Virus record (IMG/VR): IMGVR_UViG_3300025490_000005
Location: 1-29,604 of that record
Strand: one strand, 5' to 3'
Source of the DNA: a virus
Taxonomy: Duplodnaviria > Caudoviricetes
Length of the DNA stretch: 29,604 bases
A model generated the notes under the pieces. The model saw only the letters and a program-made list of their open reading frames with translations, was not told the DNA's origin and ran no database searches. Made by a program: the position numbers and the translations under genes. Below are positions 144 through 28,828 of this stretch, in pieces (positions within the stretch are counted from its first letter, which is position 1; each line of letters opens with the position of its first letter).

Positions 144-1721
144 TTATGCTTTGAACTCCTTGCCATCTTTAAACTCAAACAGCATCCTACCGTCCACCAT
201 TACCTTGACCTTCCTTACCGACACCCCCCACAGCTTCTCGTCAAATTCCTCTAAAACCAGCGGTTGGGATTCAATTTCCCTGATAAAATTGCTAAGAACT
301 AACGACTTGTTCTGGCGCTCACGCTGCAGCCTCTCCAGTTCGGCAACCCGCTCCGTGGCCTTGCGGTGCCGCTTCAGATAGCTGTTGTTGCGCTTACTCC
401 ACTCATCCTGACTGGCAGGAGTCCTCGCGTTCTCATAGATTGCATTTTTGGACAGTTCAGTAACCACCTCTATTTCCCGCCTAAGTTCCTCAAGTTCGGC
501 TTCAATCGCCGACTGGTTACATAGAATCTGCTGAGCGAGGCAGCAGTTGGTGAGCAGTTCCTCTCGGCTACCCATCAAAGTGTTAAAAGCCACCAGGAAG
601 CGTTGTTTCACATCGTCCTCGGTTACGTGCGGAGTTTTACACCTTTTACCGTTCTTGTACTTTTCATTGCACCGCCAGATTACCCGGCGGTATTTGGTGT
701 TGGAACCCCAGACCTTGGATCCGTAAAACCCACCACAATCACCGCAGACTATCTTCGCCGAGAACGGGCTGCCGCAGCCGGATGGTCTGCCGAGACCCTT
801 ACGTCGCTCGATTTCTGCCTGCACTGCGTCAAATTCATCCGGCTCGATAATAGCGGGGTGGCTGTTCTGAACGTAGTATTGCGGAACTTCGCCCTCGTTG
901 GGCTTCCGCTTTTTTGTTAGGAAGTCTACAGTGAATTTCTTTTGGAGAAGGGCATCGCCCTTATATTTCTCGTTGCCCAATATACTTATAATTGTAGCAA
1001 CCTGCCACGTTTTTTTACCTGCTGGTGATGGAATACCCTGTCCGGCAAGCTGCTTGGCAATCGCAGAAGGTGTTTTGCCATCTACGAACAGCCGGAATAT
1101 CATGCGCACAATTTCGGCTTCGGATTCCACAATCTTAGGTAAGCCGTCCTCGCCCTTCTCATAACCGAGGAATTGACCGTATGGCAGGCTCACCTTGCCG
1201 TCAGCCATGCGCTTGCGTTGCCCCCATGTAACATTTTCAGAAATTGACCTCGATTCTTCTTGCGCGAGCGAAGACATGATCGTGATGAGCAGCTCGCCCT
1301 TGCTGTCCAGTGTATAAATGTTTTCTTTTTCAAAGTAGACCTCCACGCCTTTTTCCTTGAGCTGGCGAACTGTCACAAGGCTATCTACAGTGTTTCGAGC
1401 AAAGCGGGATACGCTTTTAGTGATGATAAGGTCAACCTTGCCGACTAAGGCATCGGCAATCATCTGCTTAAAGCCGTCACGCTTTTTCGTATTTGTTGCG
1501 CTGATGCCTTCATCTGTATAAACCCGCACAAACTCCCAGTCGGCGCGCTCCTTAATGTACTTGGTATAGTAATCCACCTGTGCCTCGTAGCTAGTCAGTT
1601 GTTCTTCGCTGTCGGTGGAAACTCTAGCATATGCTGCAGTCCTTCGTTTGTCGTTCAAGTGCGTACCAATGGCCGAGTTTTGGCGAAGTGTTGCCGGGAT
1701 TATCCTTATGCTTGAAGCCAT
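144..1721 (-). CDS. Large serine recombinase (resolvase + recombinase + Zn-ribbon + coiled coil)
   Basis: Catalytic AAYARVST, SVSRFARN, HPAII, CGDCG...WRC...C; start placed at ATG 1721 behind GGAGG (track starts at 1733). Confidence 0.93.
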   Translation of the reverse strand: MASSIRIIPATLRQNSAIGTHLNDKRRTAAYARVSTDSEEQLTSYEAQVDYYTKYIKERADWEFVRVYTDEGISATNTKKRDGFKQMIADALVGKVDLIITKSVSRFARNTVDSLVTVRQLKEKGVEVYFEKENIYTLDSKGELLITIMSSLAQEESRSISENVTWGQRKRMADGKVSLPYGQFLGYEKGEDGLPKIVESEAEIVRMIFRLFVDGKTPSAIAKQLAGQGIPSPAGKKTWQVATIISILGNEKYKGDALLQKKFTVDFLTKKRKPNEGEVPQYYVQNSHPAIIEPDEFDAVQAEIERRKGLGRPSGCGSPFSAKIVCGDCGGFYGSKVWGSNTKYRRVIWRCNEKYKNGKRCKTPHVTEDDVKQRFLVAFNTLMGSREELLTNCCLAQQILCNQSAIEAELEELRREIEVVTELSKNAIYENARTPASQDEWSKRNNSYLKRHRKATERVAELERLQRERQNKSLVLSNFIREIESQPLVLEEFDEKLWGVSVRKVKVMVDGRMLFEFKDGKEFKA

Positions 1722-1722
1722 G

Positions 1723-3018
1723 CTACCTCCCACCTTTTACTTTTTCTCGTGCCAATTGTCGCATCTCGTCCGTCCAGCTCTCACGGCGCGACCTGTCCTG
1801 CCAGCCATTTTCTTCTGTATGTCCGTCGCGGAACATGAAGATCAACGTGTTAAAATCCGGCACCCGGATTTCCTTAATCTCTTTTTCGAAGATTTCAGCA
1901 TCAAGCTCATCAAGACCTAGAACCTCGGCACCTGTTGAATAAAGCACAGCTTCCGGTATTTGCTTGGCGTGGCATGCGGCTTTCCCCTTCTGCAAAAAGG
2001 TGGGACACTGCCATGCGGCTTTTCCGGCTTTGACTTTCCTCTTATACTTCTTGCCGCAGCTACCGCAGCGGATGATGCCGCTAAATGGGTATCGGTTATG
2101 GGTATTACTCTTTGCTCCATAAAGCCTGCGCCGCTCTTCCATGACCATTTGTGCTTTTTCAAAGGTTGCCGTATCAATGATGGCAGGATGAGTGCCTTCC
2201 GCGAAATACTGCGGTAGCGCACCAGTATTTCTGACCAACTTTTTTGTCAGATGGTCGGCTACATACTTTTTCTGCAGCAACGCGTTTCCGGCATATTTTT
2301 CATTCCTTAGGATTTCCATTACGCGCTCGCTATTCCAGTCAGCGCCGCGCACGGTGGCCACATTCATTCCCATCAGCTTCTTTGCAATCCTGCCGCCGCC
2401 CATGCCGCCGATATAATCGTCAAAAATCATGCGGACAAGCGCCGCCTGCTCATGTTCGATTTCTATTTTACCTTTTGCGATGCGGTATCCGAACATGAAA
2501 TTGAGTCCGGCCAGTTCGCCGTTCTCAAAACGCTTGCGTACGCGCCACTTACAGTTTTCGCTGGCTGACAGGCTTTCTGCCTGTGCATAGGACGCGAGAA
2601 TGGTCAGCATAAGCTCACCGTCTCCACTGATGGAGTGGATGTTCTGCTCCTCAAAATATACGTCCACGCCTAGTGATTTCAGTTCCCGCACAGTCTCAAG
2701 AAGTGTAACGGTATTCCTGGCAAAGCGTGAAATTGACTTGGTGATGATCATGTCAACTTTACCGTCCCTGCAGTCGGCGAGCATACGCCTAAACTCCGGG
2801 CGGCTATCTTTTGTGCCCGTCAGCGCCTCGTCCGCGTATACTCCGGCATATTCCCAGTCCGGCCGCCGCTGGATCAGTCCGCTATAATAGCTGACCTGGG
2901 CAGCGAGGGATTGAAGCATCGCGTCTTTGCCGCTTGACACCCGTGCGTAGGCGGCAACCCTAAGTCTTTTAGCAAGCGTCGGGGCTGACGTCATTGTTTT
3001 TGTGATGATTCGCTCCAT
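1723..3018 (-). CDS. Large serine recombinase
   Basis: AAYARVSS, SISRFARN, HPAII, CGSCG Zn ribbon; AGGAGG SD. Confidence 0.93.
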   Translation of the reverse strand: MERIITKTMTSAPTLAKRLRVAAYARVSSGKDAMLQSLAAQVSYYSGLIQRRPDWEYAGVYADEALTGTKDSRPEFRRMLADCRDGKVDMIITKSISRFARNTVTLLETVRELKSLGVDVYFEEQNIHSISGDGELMLTILASYAQAESLSASENCKWRVRKRFENGELAGLNFMFGYRIAKGKIEIEHEQAALVRMIFDDYIGGMGGGRIAKKLMGMNVATVRGADWNSERVMEILRNEKYAGNALLQKKYVADHLTKKLVRNTGALPQYFAEGTHPAIIDTATFEKAQMVMEERRRLYGAKSNTHNRYPFSGIIRCGSCGKKYKRKVKAGKAAWQCPTFLQKGKAACHAKQIPEAVLYSTGAEVLGLDELDAEIFEKEIKEIRVPDFNTLIFMFRDGHTEENGWQDRSRRESWTDEMRQLAREKVKGGR

Positions 3019-23317: not shown

Positions 23318-23351
23318 ACATAGATCACTCTAAAGCTGTAAATTAGCAAGT
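23318..23351 (-). promoter_or_regulatory. Upstream motif, copy 2
   Basis: ACTTGCTAATTTACAGCTTTAGAGTGATCTATGT upstream of the SD of the 23286 gene. Confidence 0.55.
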
Positions 23352-24238
23352 TATATCTTTGACATGTGTGTATATTGGCTACGGTAATCCTCCCACAGTA
23401 CCGACTTGAAAATAGCCTTATGGTTAACCCACCGTGCGAAAGCTTTCTGTTCCTTCGTGGGTTCGATATTTGTCCGGAAGTCTCGGTATGGCTGTGCAAA
23501 CGGGTCTACGTTCAACCCTTTCAAAAAGCGAACGCGCTCCAGGGCCTCGGGGATGTCTTTAACGAGAACATATACAAAATAGGCACGCGGCGTGGCGTTG
23601 TACCAGCGCAGCAAGTTAACCGCTTTTTGTATATAGGGCATCATCGCTTGGCTATCACAGGCAAGACGGATCGGCGTCAGCCACTTGACCTTCGCTAGAA
23701 GTCGAGCCGTTGCGTCGTCAATCAGACGGGCATCCAGCCCCTGATTAAAATCCACGCGCAGTCCCAATCCAGCAATCTTTTCAAGCTGACTGATTCCATG
23801 ATCATGGGCTAGCACATTGTTGTCCATCAGAACTACGTCTCGATGCTTGGCAAAATCGGTAATATCAGCATGATCCTGAATCGGCCCTTCCTTTTCAGGG
23901 ACAATGCACCACCCACAGTTTCGAATGCAACCACGCGTCAGGAAGCCCAACGAATAATCGAGATCATACAAATCATAATCCGGACACAGGTGCTCAACCT
24001 CATCAGGCAAAGCCACTTTCAGATTGATACCCGAACCGCCTACTTCAACCCAGTCAGGTAATTCCGGCATGAGCGTAAAGGAAAAGACCTTGCTTGCGAA
24101 ACCGCAGTCAAAGTCTTTTATATTATCCGGTGTTGCCAATTTGACCTCATGACCTGTTGCCTTAAAGTGTGCCGACAGCTTCATTAGCGCCAGGTTGGGG
24201 TAATTGTGGCCGTCAATATCAACCAGTCCGACTCTCAT
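23351..24238 (-). CDS. Radical SAM domain protein
   Basis: TRGCIRNCGWC (CxxxCxxC), VLMDNN, DFNQGLDARL. Confidence 0.88.
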   Translation of the reverse strand: MRVGLVDIDGHNYPNLALMKLSAHFKATGHEVKLATPDNIKDFDCGFASKVFSFTLMPELPDWVEVGGSGINLKVALPDEVEHLCPDYDLYDLDYSLGFLTRGCIRNCGWCIVPEKEGPIQDHADITDFAKHRDVVLMDNNVLAHDHGISQLEKIAGLGLRVDFNQGLDARLIDDATARLLAKVKWLTPIRLACDSQAMMPYIQKAVNLLRWYNATPRAYFVYVLVKDIPEALERVRFLKGLNVDPFAQPYRDFRTNIEPTKEQKAFARWVNHKAIFKSVLWEDYRSQYTHMSKI

Positions 24239-24270
24239 CCGCACCCACCTCGTTGTAAGAGAACAAAATT

Positions 24271-26148
24271 TTATTTATTGCCATGTTGCCCACCACCTTC
24301 TATTAATTCTACAATCCCGCCGAGGACAAAAATCACGCACGGTAAAGCCACCCCAGCGCCCCACATCTTATATTCTGCAGAATCGGAATATGGGTTCTGC
24401 AACCACTTAATTATCTGATTCCGGCTCTTTGGCTTTGAGGACACGCCCATAATAAGACGGTGGATTTCCCAGACTTCCGCCCAAAAAACGATATCCTCTT
24501 CGGTAGGCTCGGCAGTTTCCAAATCCGAGCACCACCAGTCGGGAAAGCCCTGCAGCCTGGCGCACTCTGTGGGCGTGAGCCTGCGAACGGTATACTGCGG
24601 CCGGTTCACAATTTGCACATCTTTATAGTCCCGTGCCAGCAGCGTGGCGGCTCTCTCCGCATGCACCTCGGCGAAGCTGCCCGTGGTCATGGCATAGGCC
24701 ACTGCATGGCGGTCGGCGGTGTTTAATGTGAAACTCACTTCATCGTTTACGCCGTCTCCCTGCGGACCGTTCTTTTCTTCGCGCCCGATCATGCTGCCCT
24801 GCAGGACGTATGTCTGCCGGGAAATGCCCGGCTCTGCAGCGATTGCGCTGGATTTGCCTTGCAAATCCCTTGCCTCATCCCGTTCCACAACGGCGATGCC
24901 GCCCTGATTGCAGGCCGGGTTGCCGCCGTTTTTGTCCAGCGTCCGGGAAGTGTCCGCTTCATAAATGCCGCTGTTAGGGTTAGCAGATTTCATGGCATTA
25001 CTGTCCTTGGAACAGATGCCGTAAGTTTTAGGCATGAACACCGTCTGCTCATTGTTGCAAGAAAGGGTGGCAGACATATCATCTTGAACCAGTGCGGATT
25101 TCCCGCCTCCATCACAGCCGGAGCGGATTTCCAGAGTCAACGGCACGTTGCCGCCGCCCGTCCCCATGCGTGAGGTCAGTGTTTGCACCTTGCCACTTGT
25201 GTCAAGGGTAACCCGGCTGTCGGTTGGATGGTTCTCAACCACGACTGCAAGCCGGTTGTCGCCCATGTCGGCTCGGAGCGTCCCGCATAGGCCTTTATCT
25301 GAATGCCCGCCCAGCCTTGAAGCTGCCCCCGGCTCGAACACGATGGGCTGATGCCCGTGTTCCTGGGCACGGAGCGTGGCGGTTAGTTCTTCCGTGACTG
25401 ACATACAAGAACCGCCCTGATCGTTTAAGACACGGACTGGCTCTCCAGTGCAATCCGCAAAACCTCCGGCAGTTCTTTGCCCCGGAGAGCTGCACGGCGC
25501 AAAATCCCTTGACACGCCTTCGGGCTCAAAGAGTATTTCTCCGGCGTATTCGCTTCCAAAATCTGCGACAAGATAGATTCTCTTGCGGCGTTGGGCGACT
25601 CCGAAAAATTGCGCGTCGATAGTTCTGTATGCCACGCTCCATCCGTTTCCCAAAAGTATGTCTGCGTAAGACCATCGGCCGTTCTCAGGCGCAGGCACCT
25701 CGGCTTCCGGCTCGGCGATCCGGATGATCGCTTCGAGGACTGCCTTGAAGTCGGCGCCTTTGTTTGAGGAAAACGCACCGGGTACGTTCTCCCAGAGGAT
25801 GAATCTTGGATTACGCCCATTTGTCGCGCACCTCATTTCCTTAATGATTCTGATTGCTTCATAAAAAAGAACGGATTGTTTTCCGTCCAGACCAGCTCGC
25901 TTGCCTGCGACCGACATATCAGTGCAGGGTGAGCCGAAGGAGATAATGTCTACAGGCTCAATCTTCGAGCCGCCAATCTGTCCAATGTCGCCGTAGTGCT
26001 TCATCTGCGGCAGGCGTTTGGTGGTCACCCTTATGGGAAAAGGCTCTATCTCTGATCCCCAGACAGGTATGATCCCATTTAAAACGGCTCCAAGCGGAAA
26101 GCCGCCGGAGCCGTCGAAGAGCGAGCCGAGGGTAAGCTGTCTATTCAT
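24271..26148 (-). CDS. C5-cytosine DNA methyltransferase with long variable region
   Basis: Motifs I FDGSGGF, IV GSPC, VI ENVPG, VIII QRRKRIY, IX RRLTPTECARLQGFP, X YKMWGAGV. Confidence 0.93.
   Translation of the reverse strand: MNRQLTLGSLFDGSGGFPLGAVLNGIIPVWGSEIEPFPIRVTTKRLPQMKHYGDIGQIGGSKIEPVDIISFGSPCTDMSVAGKRAGLDGKQSVLFYEAIRIIKEMRCATNGRNPRFILWENVPGAFSSNKGADFKAVLEAIIRIAEPEAEVPAPENGRWSYADILLGNGWSVAYRTIDAQFFGVAQRRKRIYLVADFGSEYAGEILFEPEGVSRDFAPCSSPGQRTAGGFADCTGEPVRVLNDQGGSCMSVTEELTATLRAQEHGHQPIVFEPGAASRLGGHSDKGLCGTLRADMGDNRLAVVVENHPTDSRVTLDTSGKVQTLTSRMGTGGGNVPLTLEIRSGCDGGGKSALVQDDMSATLSCNNEQTVFMPKTYGICSKDSNAMKSANPNSGIYEADTSRTLDKNGGNPACNQGGIAVVERDEARDLQGKSSAIAAEPGISRQTYVLQGSMIGREEKNGPQGDGVNDEVSFTLNTADRHAVAYAMTTGSFAEVHAERAATLLARDYKDVQIVNRPQYTVRRLTPTECARLQGFPDWWCSDLETAEPTEEDIVFWAEVWEIHRLIMGVSSKPKSRNQIIKWLQNPYSDSAEYKMWGAGVALPCVIFVLGGIVELIEGGGQHGNK
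25425..25820 (-). CDS. Nested alternative-frame ORF, candidate second subunit of the C5 methyltransferase
   Basis: ATG with GAGGTG SD 8 nt upstream; C-terminal LSQILEANTPEKYSLSPKACQGILRRA. Confidence 0.7.
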   Translation of the reverse strand: MGVIQDSSSGRTYPVRFPQTKAPTSRQSSKRSSGSPSRKPRCLRLRTADGLTQTYFWETDGAWHTELSTRNFSESPNAARESILSQILEANTPEKYSLSPKACQGILRRAALRGKELPEVLRIALESQSVS

Positions 26149-26756
26149 CTTGAATCCTCCATTTTAAAAGAAAAAACGCCCGTTACCGGACGCCAGTTTC
26201 GACGGACAACCATGTTCATGCACCGTTCATAAACCATAATCTTAACATTTTGTGAAGGTTCCGGCGCATTCTCGTTTAATCTGGCAAATTCCCCAAACAT
26301 AAGTTTTGCGGCATAATTATATGCCATAGCGCCTTCTCGTTCTGTTAGGAAAACGCCGAGGTGTATTGCTTTACCGTTATACTTAAGTCTCGTCTCCCAA
26401 CCGTTCTTTCCCTTACGTCGCAAAACACCTTTGTACTTTGATGTACACAATACGTTAGGTTTGCCTCGATTGAACGCGTTTGTCTGAGTGGTCGCTATGC
26501 GAAGGTTGGCACGACGATTGTCTAAACCGTTACCGTTTATGTGGTCTGTTGCCAGATCATCATCAACCTCAAGAATTTGGCGATGCATCGAGATCGTGTG
26601 TCGTGGTTTTCCACGCTGTCGGGGCAAGCTGCGAATAGCATATCCCCCGGACTGATAATTGTTGGGCTGAAATGCCCAGTTAAATTCGCTTAAAATCTCA
26701 AAATCCTCATCGTCCACTATCACACATTTTCCCCGCGTCAGTTGGATGGTTTTAAT
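26145..26756 (-). CDS. HNH endonuclease with AP2 DNA-binding domain (homing endonuclease-like)
   Basis: MHRQI...DHINGNGLDNRRANLR; SKYKGV...W...HLGVF.TEREGAMAYN; start at ATT 26756 or GTG 26723. Confidence 0.88.
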   Translation of the reverse strand: MKTIQLTRGKCVIVDDEDFEILSEFNWAFQPNNYQSGGYAIRSLPRQRGKPRHTISMHRQILEVDDDLATDHINGNGLDNRRANLRIATTQTNAFNRGKPNVLCTSKYKGVLRRKGKNGWETRLKYNGKAIHLGVFLTEREGAMAYNYAAKLMFGEFARLNENAPEPSQNVKIMVYERCMNMVVRRNWRPVTGVFSFKMEDSR

Positions 26757-28828
26757 ATTGAGCGCACCTCCTCGAATGTCAGTCTCTTTCCTTTGCGCTC
26801 GAATGTAATTGCCTGATTTGGAAAACTTTCGTGAAACCGTTTAATACTGGCGCTTGCGTATTTCGTGTCAATTTCCATTGCGTAGCAGATACGATTGGAT
26901 TGCTCGCAAGCCATCCCGGTTGAAAAACTCCCTGAAAACAGATCGAGCACGATGTTGTTTGCAGTGCTGCTGTTTTTGATTGGATACGCTAGCAGCGGAA
27001 CAGGCTTCATCGTACAATGAATGTCATTCTTGGCAGACTTGTCAAAATTCCAAATTGTAGTCTGTTTCCTATCGGAGTACCAAAGATGCTTTCCGGATTT
27101 CTTCCAACCGAAAAGGCAGTTATGCACCACGATACCATCGGCAATATAGTGTCCGTACTCTTTAACATCCAACGAATACACAGTTCCATGAAACGGCGAT
27201 GTTTCAACGGTCTCAATCGTCTCCCACTGAAAGTGCTTATTGTCCGTATAATCCCTTGAGATTGGAATCTGCATTATTTCGGGAATCAGATTACATGCAC
27301 ACACCTTGGCGGTCACGCGTGAGCTCATTTTAGATTCCCGTTCAGCAATCGTAATTAAAGGATATTTAGGATTGCGATCACATTTTAGAAGTAGTTCATG
27401 TGCGTTTTGGTTCAGTTTTTCCAAGTCTAAGCTCGTATAAATATACTCGATGTCCGACAAGGTTCTGGTTCCGCAGCTTGATCTCCAGTTTTCGGTTTCC
27501 CAATGTGTTTGCGGAATACCGTACTTAACAGAAAAGAGCTGTTCATCAGCTCTCGCTCTCTCTGCATTATCATATGTTTTTAACAGCCAAACAGCCTCGG
27601 CCTTCTCACCACGCAGCCTTTCCTTTAATCCGAACCCCCTCGAATTATATGTGCGAGTTACGCCTATTCGCCACCAGCCATCACGTTTCATCAGGTAACT
27701 GCAATATTTATGCTTGGTCATGGGGTTATACCTGATAGTAAATTTGTGGTTATCCGTAGTCCGTGTGTTCTTTCCTCCAACCCTAACGGTATACATTTTT
27801 CCTTGATAAGGTCTGCTTGCCGTTGTTATTGCGTAACCGCCGTTTCGGAATCCCTTTATCTGTCCGCTATAGGTGTCAAACGATACCACCCGGTCGCTGT
27901 CGGTCAATTCTTCTATGGGCTTCTCTCCATCGACAGTAAGCACCATCGTTCCGGCGGGCTGACAGGGTTCATGGCGCCATTGGTACGGTGAACGGCCGAG
28001 CACCAGGCTCGGCTTGACCCAAACGCACGTACCGGACAATTTGAATCCAGCCTCGCGGAACGCCCGTCGGAAGATTTCCCCCTCGGTATCGGCGTGGAAT
28101 ACATAAGCGCTGCCCTCGTTGTCAAGCGCTGCCTCGGCAGCTGTAAACGCAGCAAGCAGAAATTGATATAATGCTTCACCTCGCAGGTCATCGTTAGCGA
28201 TTTTCCCCGCCTTGCCTTCGTATGAAACCCCATATGGCGGATCGGTTAGCAGTAGGTTCGCCCTCTTACCATCCATCAACCGAGAAACGTCTTCTGCCTT
28301 CGTTGCGTCTCCTATGAGTATCCGATGCTGTCCGAGCGTCCAAAGATCCCCTGTTAAAGCAAACGGCGGCTCGCTTATCGCCTTGTCCACGTCGAAGTCA
28401 TCGTCCTTAACGTCCTCAAGCCCACCCATCAGCTTACTCAGTTCCGCGTCGTCAAAGCCAAGGAGCGAAAGGTCAAAATCAGCCCCTTGCAAATCGGCAA
28501 GTTCAATAGACAGCATCTCCGCGTCCCAGCCGGCATTTAGGGCAAGGCGGTTGTCGGCAATGATGTATGCTCGCTTCTGAGCTTCGGTCAGATGCTCGAC
28601 CACAATACAGTTTAGTTCGGTTAACCCTTCCGCACGAGCCGCAACAAGTCGCCCATGCCCTACAAGCAGATTGTATTTCTCATCAACAACCAGAGGTGCG
28701 ACCACACCGAATTCTCGAAAGCTGGCACGTATCTGAGCTATCTGCTCTTTGCTGTGCGTTCTGGCGTTTCGAGCAGACGGTACAATTTTATCAATTTTTA
28801 CTATTTCAGACCGCTTGGCGAGTATCAT
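26738..28828 (-). CDS. ParB-like domain + beta-class N6-A/N4-C DNA methyltransferase, intein-containing
   Basis: RNARTH, VGHGRL, IADNRLA (ParB-like); TDPPY motif IV precedes LDLFSGS motif I. Confidence 0.92.
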   Translation of the reverse strand: MILAKRSEIVKIDKIVPSARNARTHSKEQIAQIRASFREFGVVAPLVVDEKYNLLVGHGRLVAARAEGLTELNCIVVEHLTEAQKRAYIIADNRLALNAGWDAEMLSIELADLQGADFDLSLLGFDDAELSKLMGGLEDVKDDDFDVDKAISEPPFALTGDLWTLGQHRILIGDATKAEDVSRLMDGKRANLLLTDPPYGVSYEGKAGKIANDDLRGEALYQFLLAAFTAAEAALDNEGSAYVFHADTEGEIFRRAFREAGFKLSGTCVWVKPSLVLGRSPYQWRHEPCQPAGTMVLTVDGEKPIEELTDSDRVVSFDTYSGQIKGFRNGGYAITTASRPYQGKMYTVRVGGKNTRTTDNHKFTIRYNPMTKHKYCSYLMKRDGWWRIGVTRTYNSRGFGLKERLRGEKAEAVWLLKTYDNAERARADEQLFSVKYGIPQTHWETENWRSSCGTRTLSDIEYIYTSLDLEKLNQNAHELLLKCDRNPKYPLITIAERESKMSSRVTAKVCACNLIPEIMQIPISRDYTDNKHFQWETIETVETSPFHGTVYSLDVKEYGHYIADGIVVHNCLFGWKKSGKHLWYSDRKQTTIWNFDKSAKNDIHCTMKPVPLLAYPIKNSSTANNIVLDLFSGSFSTGMACEQSNRICYAMEIDTKYASASIKRFHESFPNQAITFERKGKRLTFEEVRSILKPSN
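27119..27964 (-). mobile_element. Intein, 282 aa (residues 289-570 of the methyltransferase)
   Basis: HEP|CQPAGTMV (block A), TDNH (block B), VYSLDV (block F), IADGIVVHN|C (block G, +1 Cys). Confidence 0.93.

Follow-up and report, generated by a model that had tools for sequence, protein, structure and literature searches.

The window, that is the whole stretch of DNA analysed here, is a viral record, linear and 29,604 bases long, in which head, tail and recombinase genes are present. Between its terminase genes lies an orphan gene encoding a C5-cytosine DNA methyltransferase (alpha), and a second open reading frame (beta) is located wholly within the alpha gene; it begins shortly ahead of motif VI and runs on for about 45 codons beyond motif VIII. 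Motifs are numbered throughout according to the C5-methyltransferase scheme, and Table 1 reports the positions of all features. The original prediction had proposed a 131-residue frame opening with ATG over motifs VI to VIII, preceded by a Shine-Dalgarno sequence built from Met-Arg-Cys codons of the main frame; both elements were found exactly as described, and the C-terminal residues quoted for the product are correct.

Table 1. Features of the methyltransferase locus in the window.
Feature	Positions	Strand	Remarks
Alpha chain, C5-cytosine DNA methyltransferase, 625 aa	24271..26148	-	a single frame carries motifs I-X, with a long variable region between VIII and IX
Alpha motif I (SAM binding)	26101..26130	-	
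Alpha motif IV, catalytic Pro-Cys P74-C75	25924..25935	-	invariant among 51 aligned alphas
Alpha motif VI (E120-N-V)	25783..25791	-	overlapped by beta
Alpha motif VIII (Q186-V194)	25567..25593	-	overlapped by beta residues 77-85
Alpha variable region, about residues 242-519	24592..25425	-	seven T-L modules, candidate target-recognition domains
Alpha motif IX (R522-D537)	24538..24585	-	predicted pairing with beta 96-98
Alpha motif X	24340..24372	-	WGAGV, Ala replacing the usual Asn (WGNGV)
Beta chain, 131 aa, gene nested in the +1 frame (ATG start, TAA stop)	25425..25820	-	over alpha codons 110-241
Beta Shine-Dalgarno GAGGTG	25829..25834	-	8 nt before the ATG, in alpha codons M105-R106-C107
Beta conserved core, residues 84-128, LSQIL...KYSLSPKACQGILRRA...GKELP	25437..25571	-	common to EcoHK31I-type beta, partly to MM1 ORF14
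Radical SAM-like gene (phrog_9298)	23351-24244	-	follows the C5-methyltransferase
HNH-AP2 endonuclease gene	26145-26723	-	between the two methyltransferase genes
ParB-N6/N4 methyltransferase	26738-28828	-	insert resembling an intein, about residues 299-570
Two tandem serine recombinase genes (phrog_95)	144-3018	-	at the record end

No restriction endonuclease gene stands beside the C5-methyltransferase gene of the window, its neighbours being the HNH-AP2 gene, the ParB-N6 methyltransferase and the radical SAM gene. In the two relatives opened for comparison the two methyltransferase genes are directly adjacent, with no HNH-AP2 gene between them. The insert in the ParB-N6/N4 methyltransferase scores 34.6 bits on Pfam Intein_splicing, just below the cut-off of 35.8.

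The alpha chain matches the Pfam DNA_methylase family (PF00145, E 3e-39), and motifs I, IV (Pro-Cys), VI, VIII, IX and X are present in order. Modelled alone, it takes the C5-methyltransferase fold, like M.HhaI and M.HaeIII, the variable region not being resolved in the model. Among 51 relatives the length of this region ranges from 172 to 446 aa, and the count of T-L modules rises with it (r 0.79, a trend partly expected by chance). One module of 37 aa found no match among PDB sequences. The repeated modules suggest, as the original prediction had considered possible, that the window enzyme could methylate more than one target. The multispecific methyltransferases of the Bacillus phages SPR, phi3T and rho11, likened here by general description, share a long variable region of repeated T-L modules, but they are single-chain enzymes. 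Within motif X, 48 of 52 relatives have GN, two (the window and L042) have GA and two could not be parsed; by reason of this Asn-to-Ala change the window methyltransferase may be weak or inactive.

The full 131-aa sequence of beta had no match in Pfam or PHROGs, a profile of the core had none among PDB sequences, 58 beta cores had no relevant match in NCBIfam, and a search of the ESM Atlas with beta returned hypothetical clusters only. PHROG 16143 ('DNA methyltransferase') matches 41 of the 58 cores, that of the window not being among them. The core is also the most conserved part of beta, with a pairwise identity of 73% as compared to 44-47% upstream. Motif IX is absent from the window beta, which ends at residue 131, while the motif maps to alpha 522-537. 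A 229-nt contig from an RNA library covers positions 25554-25782, and carries no information on strand, start or translation.

A check put forward with the original prediction was whether the +1 frame is conserved in homologs and synonymous variation suppressed within it. Both are borne out by the relatives of the window gene. Specifically, 80 viral loci were retrieved with the main-frame protein, of which 78 could be scored, having motifs IV and VI in one frame (L044 and L072 were dropped). In all 78 the +1 frame is open for 120-132 codons past motif VI, and no interrupted frame, the observation that would count against a nested gene, was met among these close homologs. The beta start is at the same place in every one of them, as ATG in 74 and GTG in 4. 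In addition, two distant main-frame queries (CRP-822 and Bcep22) yielded 160 loci, in which the +1 frame is open in 159 and truncated in one, and the +2 frame is open in none; as both queries were picked for holding beta, these figures measure conservation within those clades and not prevalence among C5-methyltransferases. In Dcm-type genes the +1 frame is closed in 15 of 15 distinct sequences. Three loci, L055 (with an alpha stop 40 codons after motif VI), L001 and L043, have a broken alpha and an intact beta frame.

The substitution analysis was carried out on 67 full-length genes (66 loci and the window), reduced to 52 below 90% nucleotide identity. When the window gene was resampled synonymously with the alpha protein fixed, the +1 frame stayed open in 11% of cases; a single copy is thus unremarkable, and the significance lies in openness across the relatives. 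All 52 dereplicated genes have the frame open as compared to 4.5 expected from synonymous resampling, a contrast that is not a p-value, since the genes are related and are not independent trials. Stops occur at about 4 per 100 codons both in the +1 frame outside the overlap (1032 in 24,654 codons) and in the +2 frame inside it (276 in 6,885). The initiation signals are equally constant. At the Arg within the Shine-Dalgarno sequence 52 of 52 relatives use AGG, a codon that serves 156 of the 1115 Arg positions outside the overlap. The beta start persists whether alpha has Asn, Asp, Gly or His at that point.

The suppression of synonymous variation is strongest under the beta core. Four-fold synonymous difference, 0.66-0.69 outside the overlap, falls to 0.43 at alpha 110-200 and to 0.08 at 200-240. 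In the latter stretch codon positions 1, 2 and 3 differ at 0.46, 0.22 and 0.22, respectively; position 1 being the most variable, beta is the dominant frame there. In conclusion, the relatives show the nested gene to be a real dual-coding gene under selection.

The original prediction had cited M.EcoHK31I as the precedent for a beta subunit encoded in an alternative frame inside alpha. This agrees with PMC2836561 and PMC3404938, in which the M.EcoHK31I beta is nested in alpha and carries motif IX, both chains being needed for the enzyme. To compare the two systems we used a primer from the supplement of PMC2836561, which matched 81 of 5,426 E. coli genomes. The locus examined, L374 of E. coli AR_0017, was identified by this primer match and is not from strain HK31. 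It encodes an alpha of 309 aa, which lacks motif IX, and in the +1 frame a beta of 176 aa that ends in motif IX. Its beta scores 56 bits on the beta core profile, as compared to at most 7.9 in 2000 shuffles, and shares 36% identity over 73 aa with the window beta (E 2e-10). Judged by this alignment, the window beta is homologous to the EcoHK31I-type beta. In addition, the variable region of the EcoHK31I-type alpha resembles one module of the window alpha (residues 447-477; one weak pairwise match, E 1e-4).

The likeness to M.EcoHK31I (which recognises YGGCCR) therefore holds for a homologous beta core, nested with its own start in the +1 frame over motifs VI-VIII, but not for motif IX, which in M.EcoHK31I lies in beta and is lacking from alpha, whereas the window alpha keeps it. 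A further difference is the restriction endonuclease gene that adjoins L374, the window gene being an orphan. As for the suggested similarity between the end of beta and the segment that follows motif VIII in Dcm, the position is right, the best match of the core on Dcm falling at 288-326, just past motif VIII, but its score of 4.8 bits is not significant, being below the shuffle maximum of 7.9. M.AquI, described in PMC3404938, is likewise one C5-methyltransferase made of two polypeptides. Its small chain comprises the distal variable region and motifs IX-X; in the window these are absent from beta and stay in alpha, so that the AquI-type split does not apply.

With all ten motifs in alpha and no motif IX in beta, the closest precedent for the partition seen in the window is, on the sequences compared, not M.EcoHK31I but ORF13/ORF14 of Streptococcus pneumoniae phage MM1 (NC_003050). 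In RefSeq, ORF14 (141 aa) is nested in ORF13 (385 aa), both being annotated as DNA methyltransferase. As in the window, this is a phage gene with a +1 nested frame that contains the beta core (46 bits on the profile) and lacks motif IX, while motifs IX and X are kept in the large chain. The differences concern the start of ORF14, at alpha codon 51 instead of 110, its stop before the C-terminal helices that the window beta has, and the shorter alpha (385 as compared to 625 aa). Totally overlapping C5-methyltransferase frames have also been reported in the 5093-group phages of S. thermophilus, in a work that cites MM1 and a streptococcal transposon, Tn5252, with overlapping C5-methyltransferase frames (PMC5601072). 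The window is thus an MM1-type partition related to EcoHK31I, an arrangement already in print for phages.

Structure prediction of both chains, a check put forward with the original prediction, returned an alpha-beta complex. Its score was 0.77, the best of three controls reaching 0.00, with runs agreeing in at least 61% of contacts and a partner pLDDT of at least 59; the mark for this score is reached by 116 of 157 solved complexes and by 2 of 215 mismatched pairs, and the prediction was run on self-made alignments. The pass may reflect likeness to solved single-chain methyltransferases. Since halves of split genes tend to pass through such likeness, we take the predicted binding as support and not as proof. 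In the model, beta 96-98 contacts alpha 521-525 (motif IX), beta 42-45 contacts alpha 163-167, and beta 70-76 contacts alpha 176-181 and 207.

These observations are compatible with the following mechanism. Ribosomes would start beta internally on the alpha mRNA, and beta would bind to alpha, placing residues 42-45 and 70-76 on the catalytic domain and pairing residues 96-98 with the motif IX strand. In this way it would contribute the structural segment found, in single-chain enzymes, after motif VIII and ahead of the recognition domain. Under the beta core, alpha codons 200-240 behave like a loose linker that is read through the beta coding sequence. One or several sites in phage DNA would be methylated by the resulting heterodimer, guarding that DNA against host restriction.

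The fate of the core where the nested frame is lost was followed in 97 relatives of the EcoHK31I-type alpha, 80 of them from genomes. Among the genome loci, 62 have a beta with motif IX, 12 are nested with a motif IX not placed by pattern, one is nested with motif IX in alpha, four are same-frame and one was not parsed. In seven loci (L454:1450-2757, L457:1393-2757, L446:1339-2895, L449:1225-2544 and L458-L460, with L459 and L460 near copies) the core lies in frame behind motif X, and the +1 frame is closed by 3-9 stops over 90 codons. In five of the seven, motif IX precedes X as it does in the window; in L446 and L449 the piece fused behind motif X includes motif IX as well as the core. The simplest reading of these arrangements is that they are natural re-fusions with permuted order, in which the overlap was lost and the piece kept by fusion. 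In L451, the fourth same-frame genome locus, motif VIII is joined directly to the core and motif X is in another frame, which looks like a deletion.

In a midpoint-rooted tree of motifs I-VIII (53 rows, with Dcm on a long branch among MM1-like rows), the four fused rows with IX before X that were included are sister to the nested L453 (95/86), and the other two fused rows fall among EcoHK31I-type genes (87/87, not starred). The nested arrangement may have arisen by a pair of compensating frameshifts around the segment, with an overprinted upstream start as the rescue; the tree is no test of this history, and settles neither a single origin nor the order of events. One clade of the tree (L461, L467, L468, L469 and L471) has a +1 frame of 175-349 codons with WPTP-type repeats and a variant motif IX, alpha keeping motifs I-VIII together with X, and shows no match to the core profile.

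All together, we consider it likely that the locus consists of two overlapping genes, kept by selection, for two chains of one phage C5-cytosine methyltransferase. This two-chain reading, the one advanced by the original prediction, is supported by the homology of beta to the EcoHK31I-type chain, by its predicted binding to alpha and by the fusion of the core where the nested frame was lost. The need for beta is not evident from the motifs alone, because alpha has all ten and the proof obtained with M.EcoHK31I concerns a beta that also carries motif IX. It is conceivable, though rather improbable, that beta is made and binds alpha as an accessory, tuning stability, activity or site choice or inhibiting the enzyme, with alpha working alone. 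Such a role would suit an alpha with motifs I-X that folds in its model like M.HhaI and M.HaeIII, a beta without motif IX, and C-terminal beta helices that are missing in MM1, L453, L462-464 and L470. It fits poorly with the retention of the core as a C-terminal fusion in loci that have a closed nested frame, which belong to two distinct parts of the tree, and with PMC2836561, in which deletions of the M.EcoHK31I beta reaching residues 65-70 (the LSQVL stretch) reduce methylation, so that the homologous stretch matters for activity.

The original prediction had also named a frameshift fusion as an alternative. Ribosomal frameshifting or polymerase slippage into the +1 frame would produce an alpha(I-VIII)-beta fusion, and proteins with alpha-then-beta or beta-then-IX-X joins do occur in databases (37 fetched among 150 listed matches). 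We judge this route very unlikely, for a dedicated Shine-Dalgarno sequence and start are kept, the frame is already open ahead of motif VI, a stretch not required by a shift that occurs after motif VIII, and the fusion would end at the beta stop without recognition domain, motif IX or motif X. Moreover, the only recurrent slippery heptamer (31 of 52 genes, from W-E-N codons) is out of phase and absent from the window. The beta-IX-X join was recovered in only one of 80 DNA loci retrieved with a beta-IX-X query; beta-IX-X proteins as a stable AquI-type form were rejected on this count, and the joined proteins look sporadic. Their AlphaFold model had a pTM of 0.31 and structural matches limited to 32-58 columns, apparently at the IX-X end, with E above 0.5, and is uninformative. 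Finally, an open frame that follows from constraints on the alpha protein, or from a signal in RNA or DNA, with no protein made, would be consistent with the chance openness of a single gene. It is scarcely credible for a frame that is open in all the dereplicated genes, where substitutions shift to +1 periodicity, whose product is homologous to a biochemically proven chain, and that is closed in Dcm-type genes.

The range of the two-chain arrangement was assessed with beta itself. The protein matches 139 of 50,697 phage records and 533 of 72,556 plasmid records, the latter mostly from E. coli and, among the matches listed, lying under Dam-type annotation as in P1 dmt, and a profile of 58 beta cores matches 5,328 clusters at 50% identity. 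In each of P1, Omega, CP-T1, Bcep22, Chantilly and CRP-822 the +1 frame is open over 153-194 codons and includes the beta core. The nested gene is annotated in none of these six, nor in two closer phages, so that it is unannotated in eight of the nine named phage records opened, the exception being MM1. In P1 (NC_005856, 66710-67201; L081:2261-2752) the unannotated frame has 163 codons and lies inside dmt. In Mycobacterium phage Omega, genes 127-128 (L082:2089-3393) make up three pieces, gp127 with motifs I-VIII, beta nested in gp127, and gp128 with the variable region and motifs IX-X. A literature search, of incomplete coverage and therefore not implying absence from print, found no paper that deals with a gene nested inside P1 dmt or with fusions of the core at the C-terminus; the accessible parts of PMC10269572, PMC1931599, PMC4472890, PMC3706429, PMC5831693 and PMC4524720 hold nothing on nested methyltransferase genes.

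The window itself is one more member of a described arrangement, the nested layout being known for the E. coli enzyme and for streptococcal phages and mostly unannotated elsewhere, including phage P1; what is added here is how widely it occurs, together with P1 as a test case and the natural fusions. With modest confidence, we lean towards the wider proposal that thousands of complete-looking phage C5-methyltransferases, including the cytosine half of P1 Dmt, would be obligate heterodimers, the second chain of each lying concealed in the +1 frame, and that codon-optimised or recoded copies would be inactive. The beta core would then be a movable structural piece that occurs nested by itself, nested together with motif IX or joined on behind motif X, and the enzymes would make up a natural series, with parts of one fold moving between reading frames. 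Should beta be required, a subunit of a very large family is being overlooked by annotation pipelines, and orphan phage methyltransferases could silently fail to work once cloned or recoded. A direct test case in laboratory E. coli is at hand in P1 dmt, and the natural C-terminal fusions provide a single-chain control, as well as a model for overlapping genes that arise from, and resolve back into, one protein.
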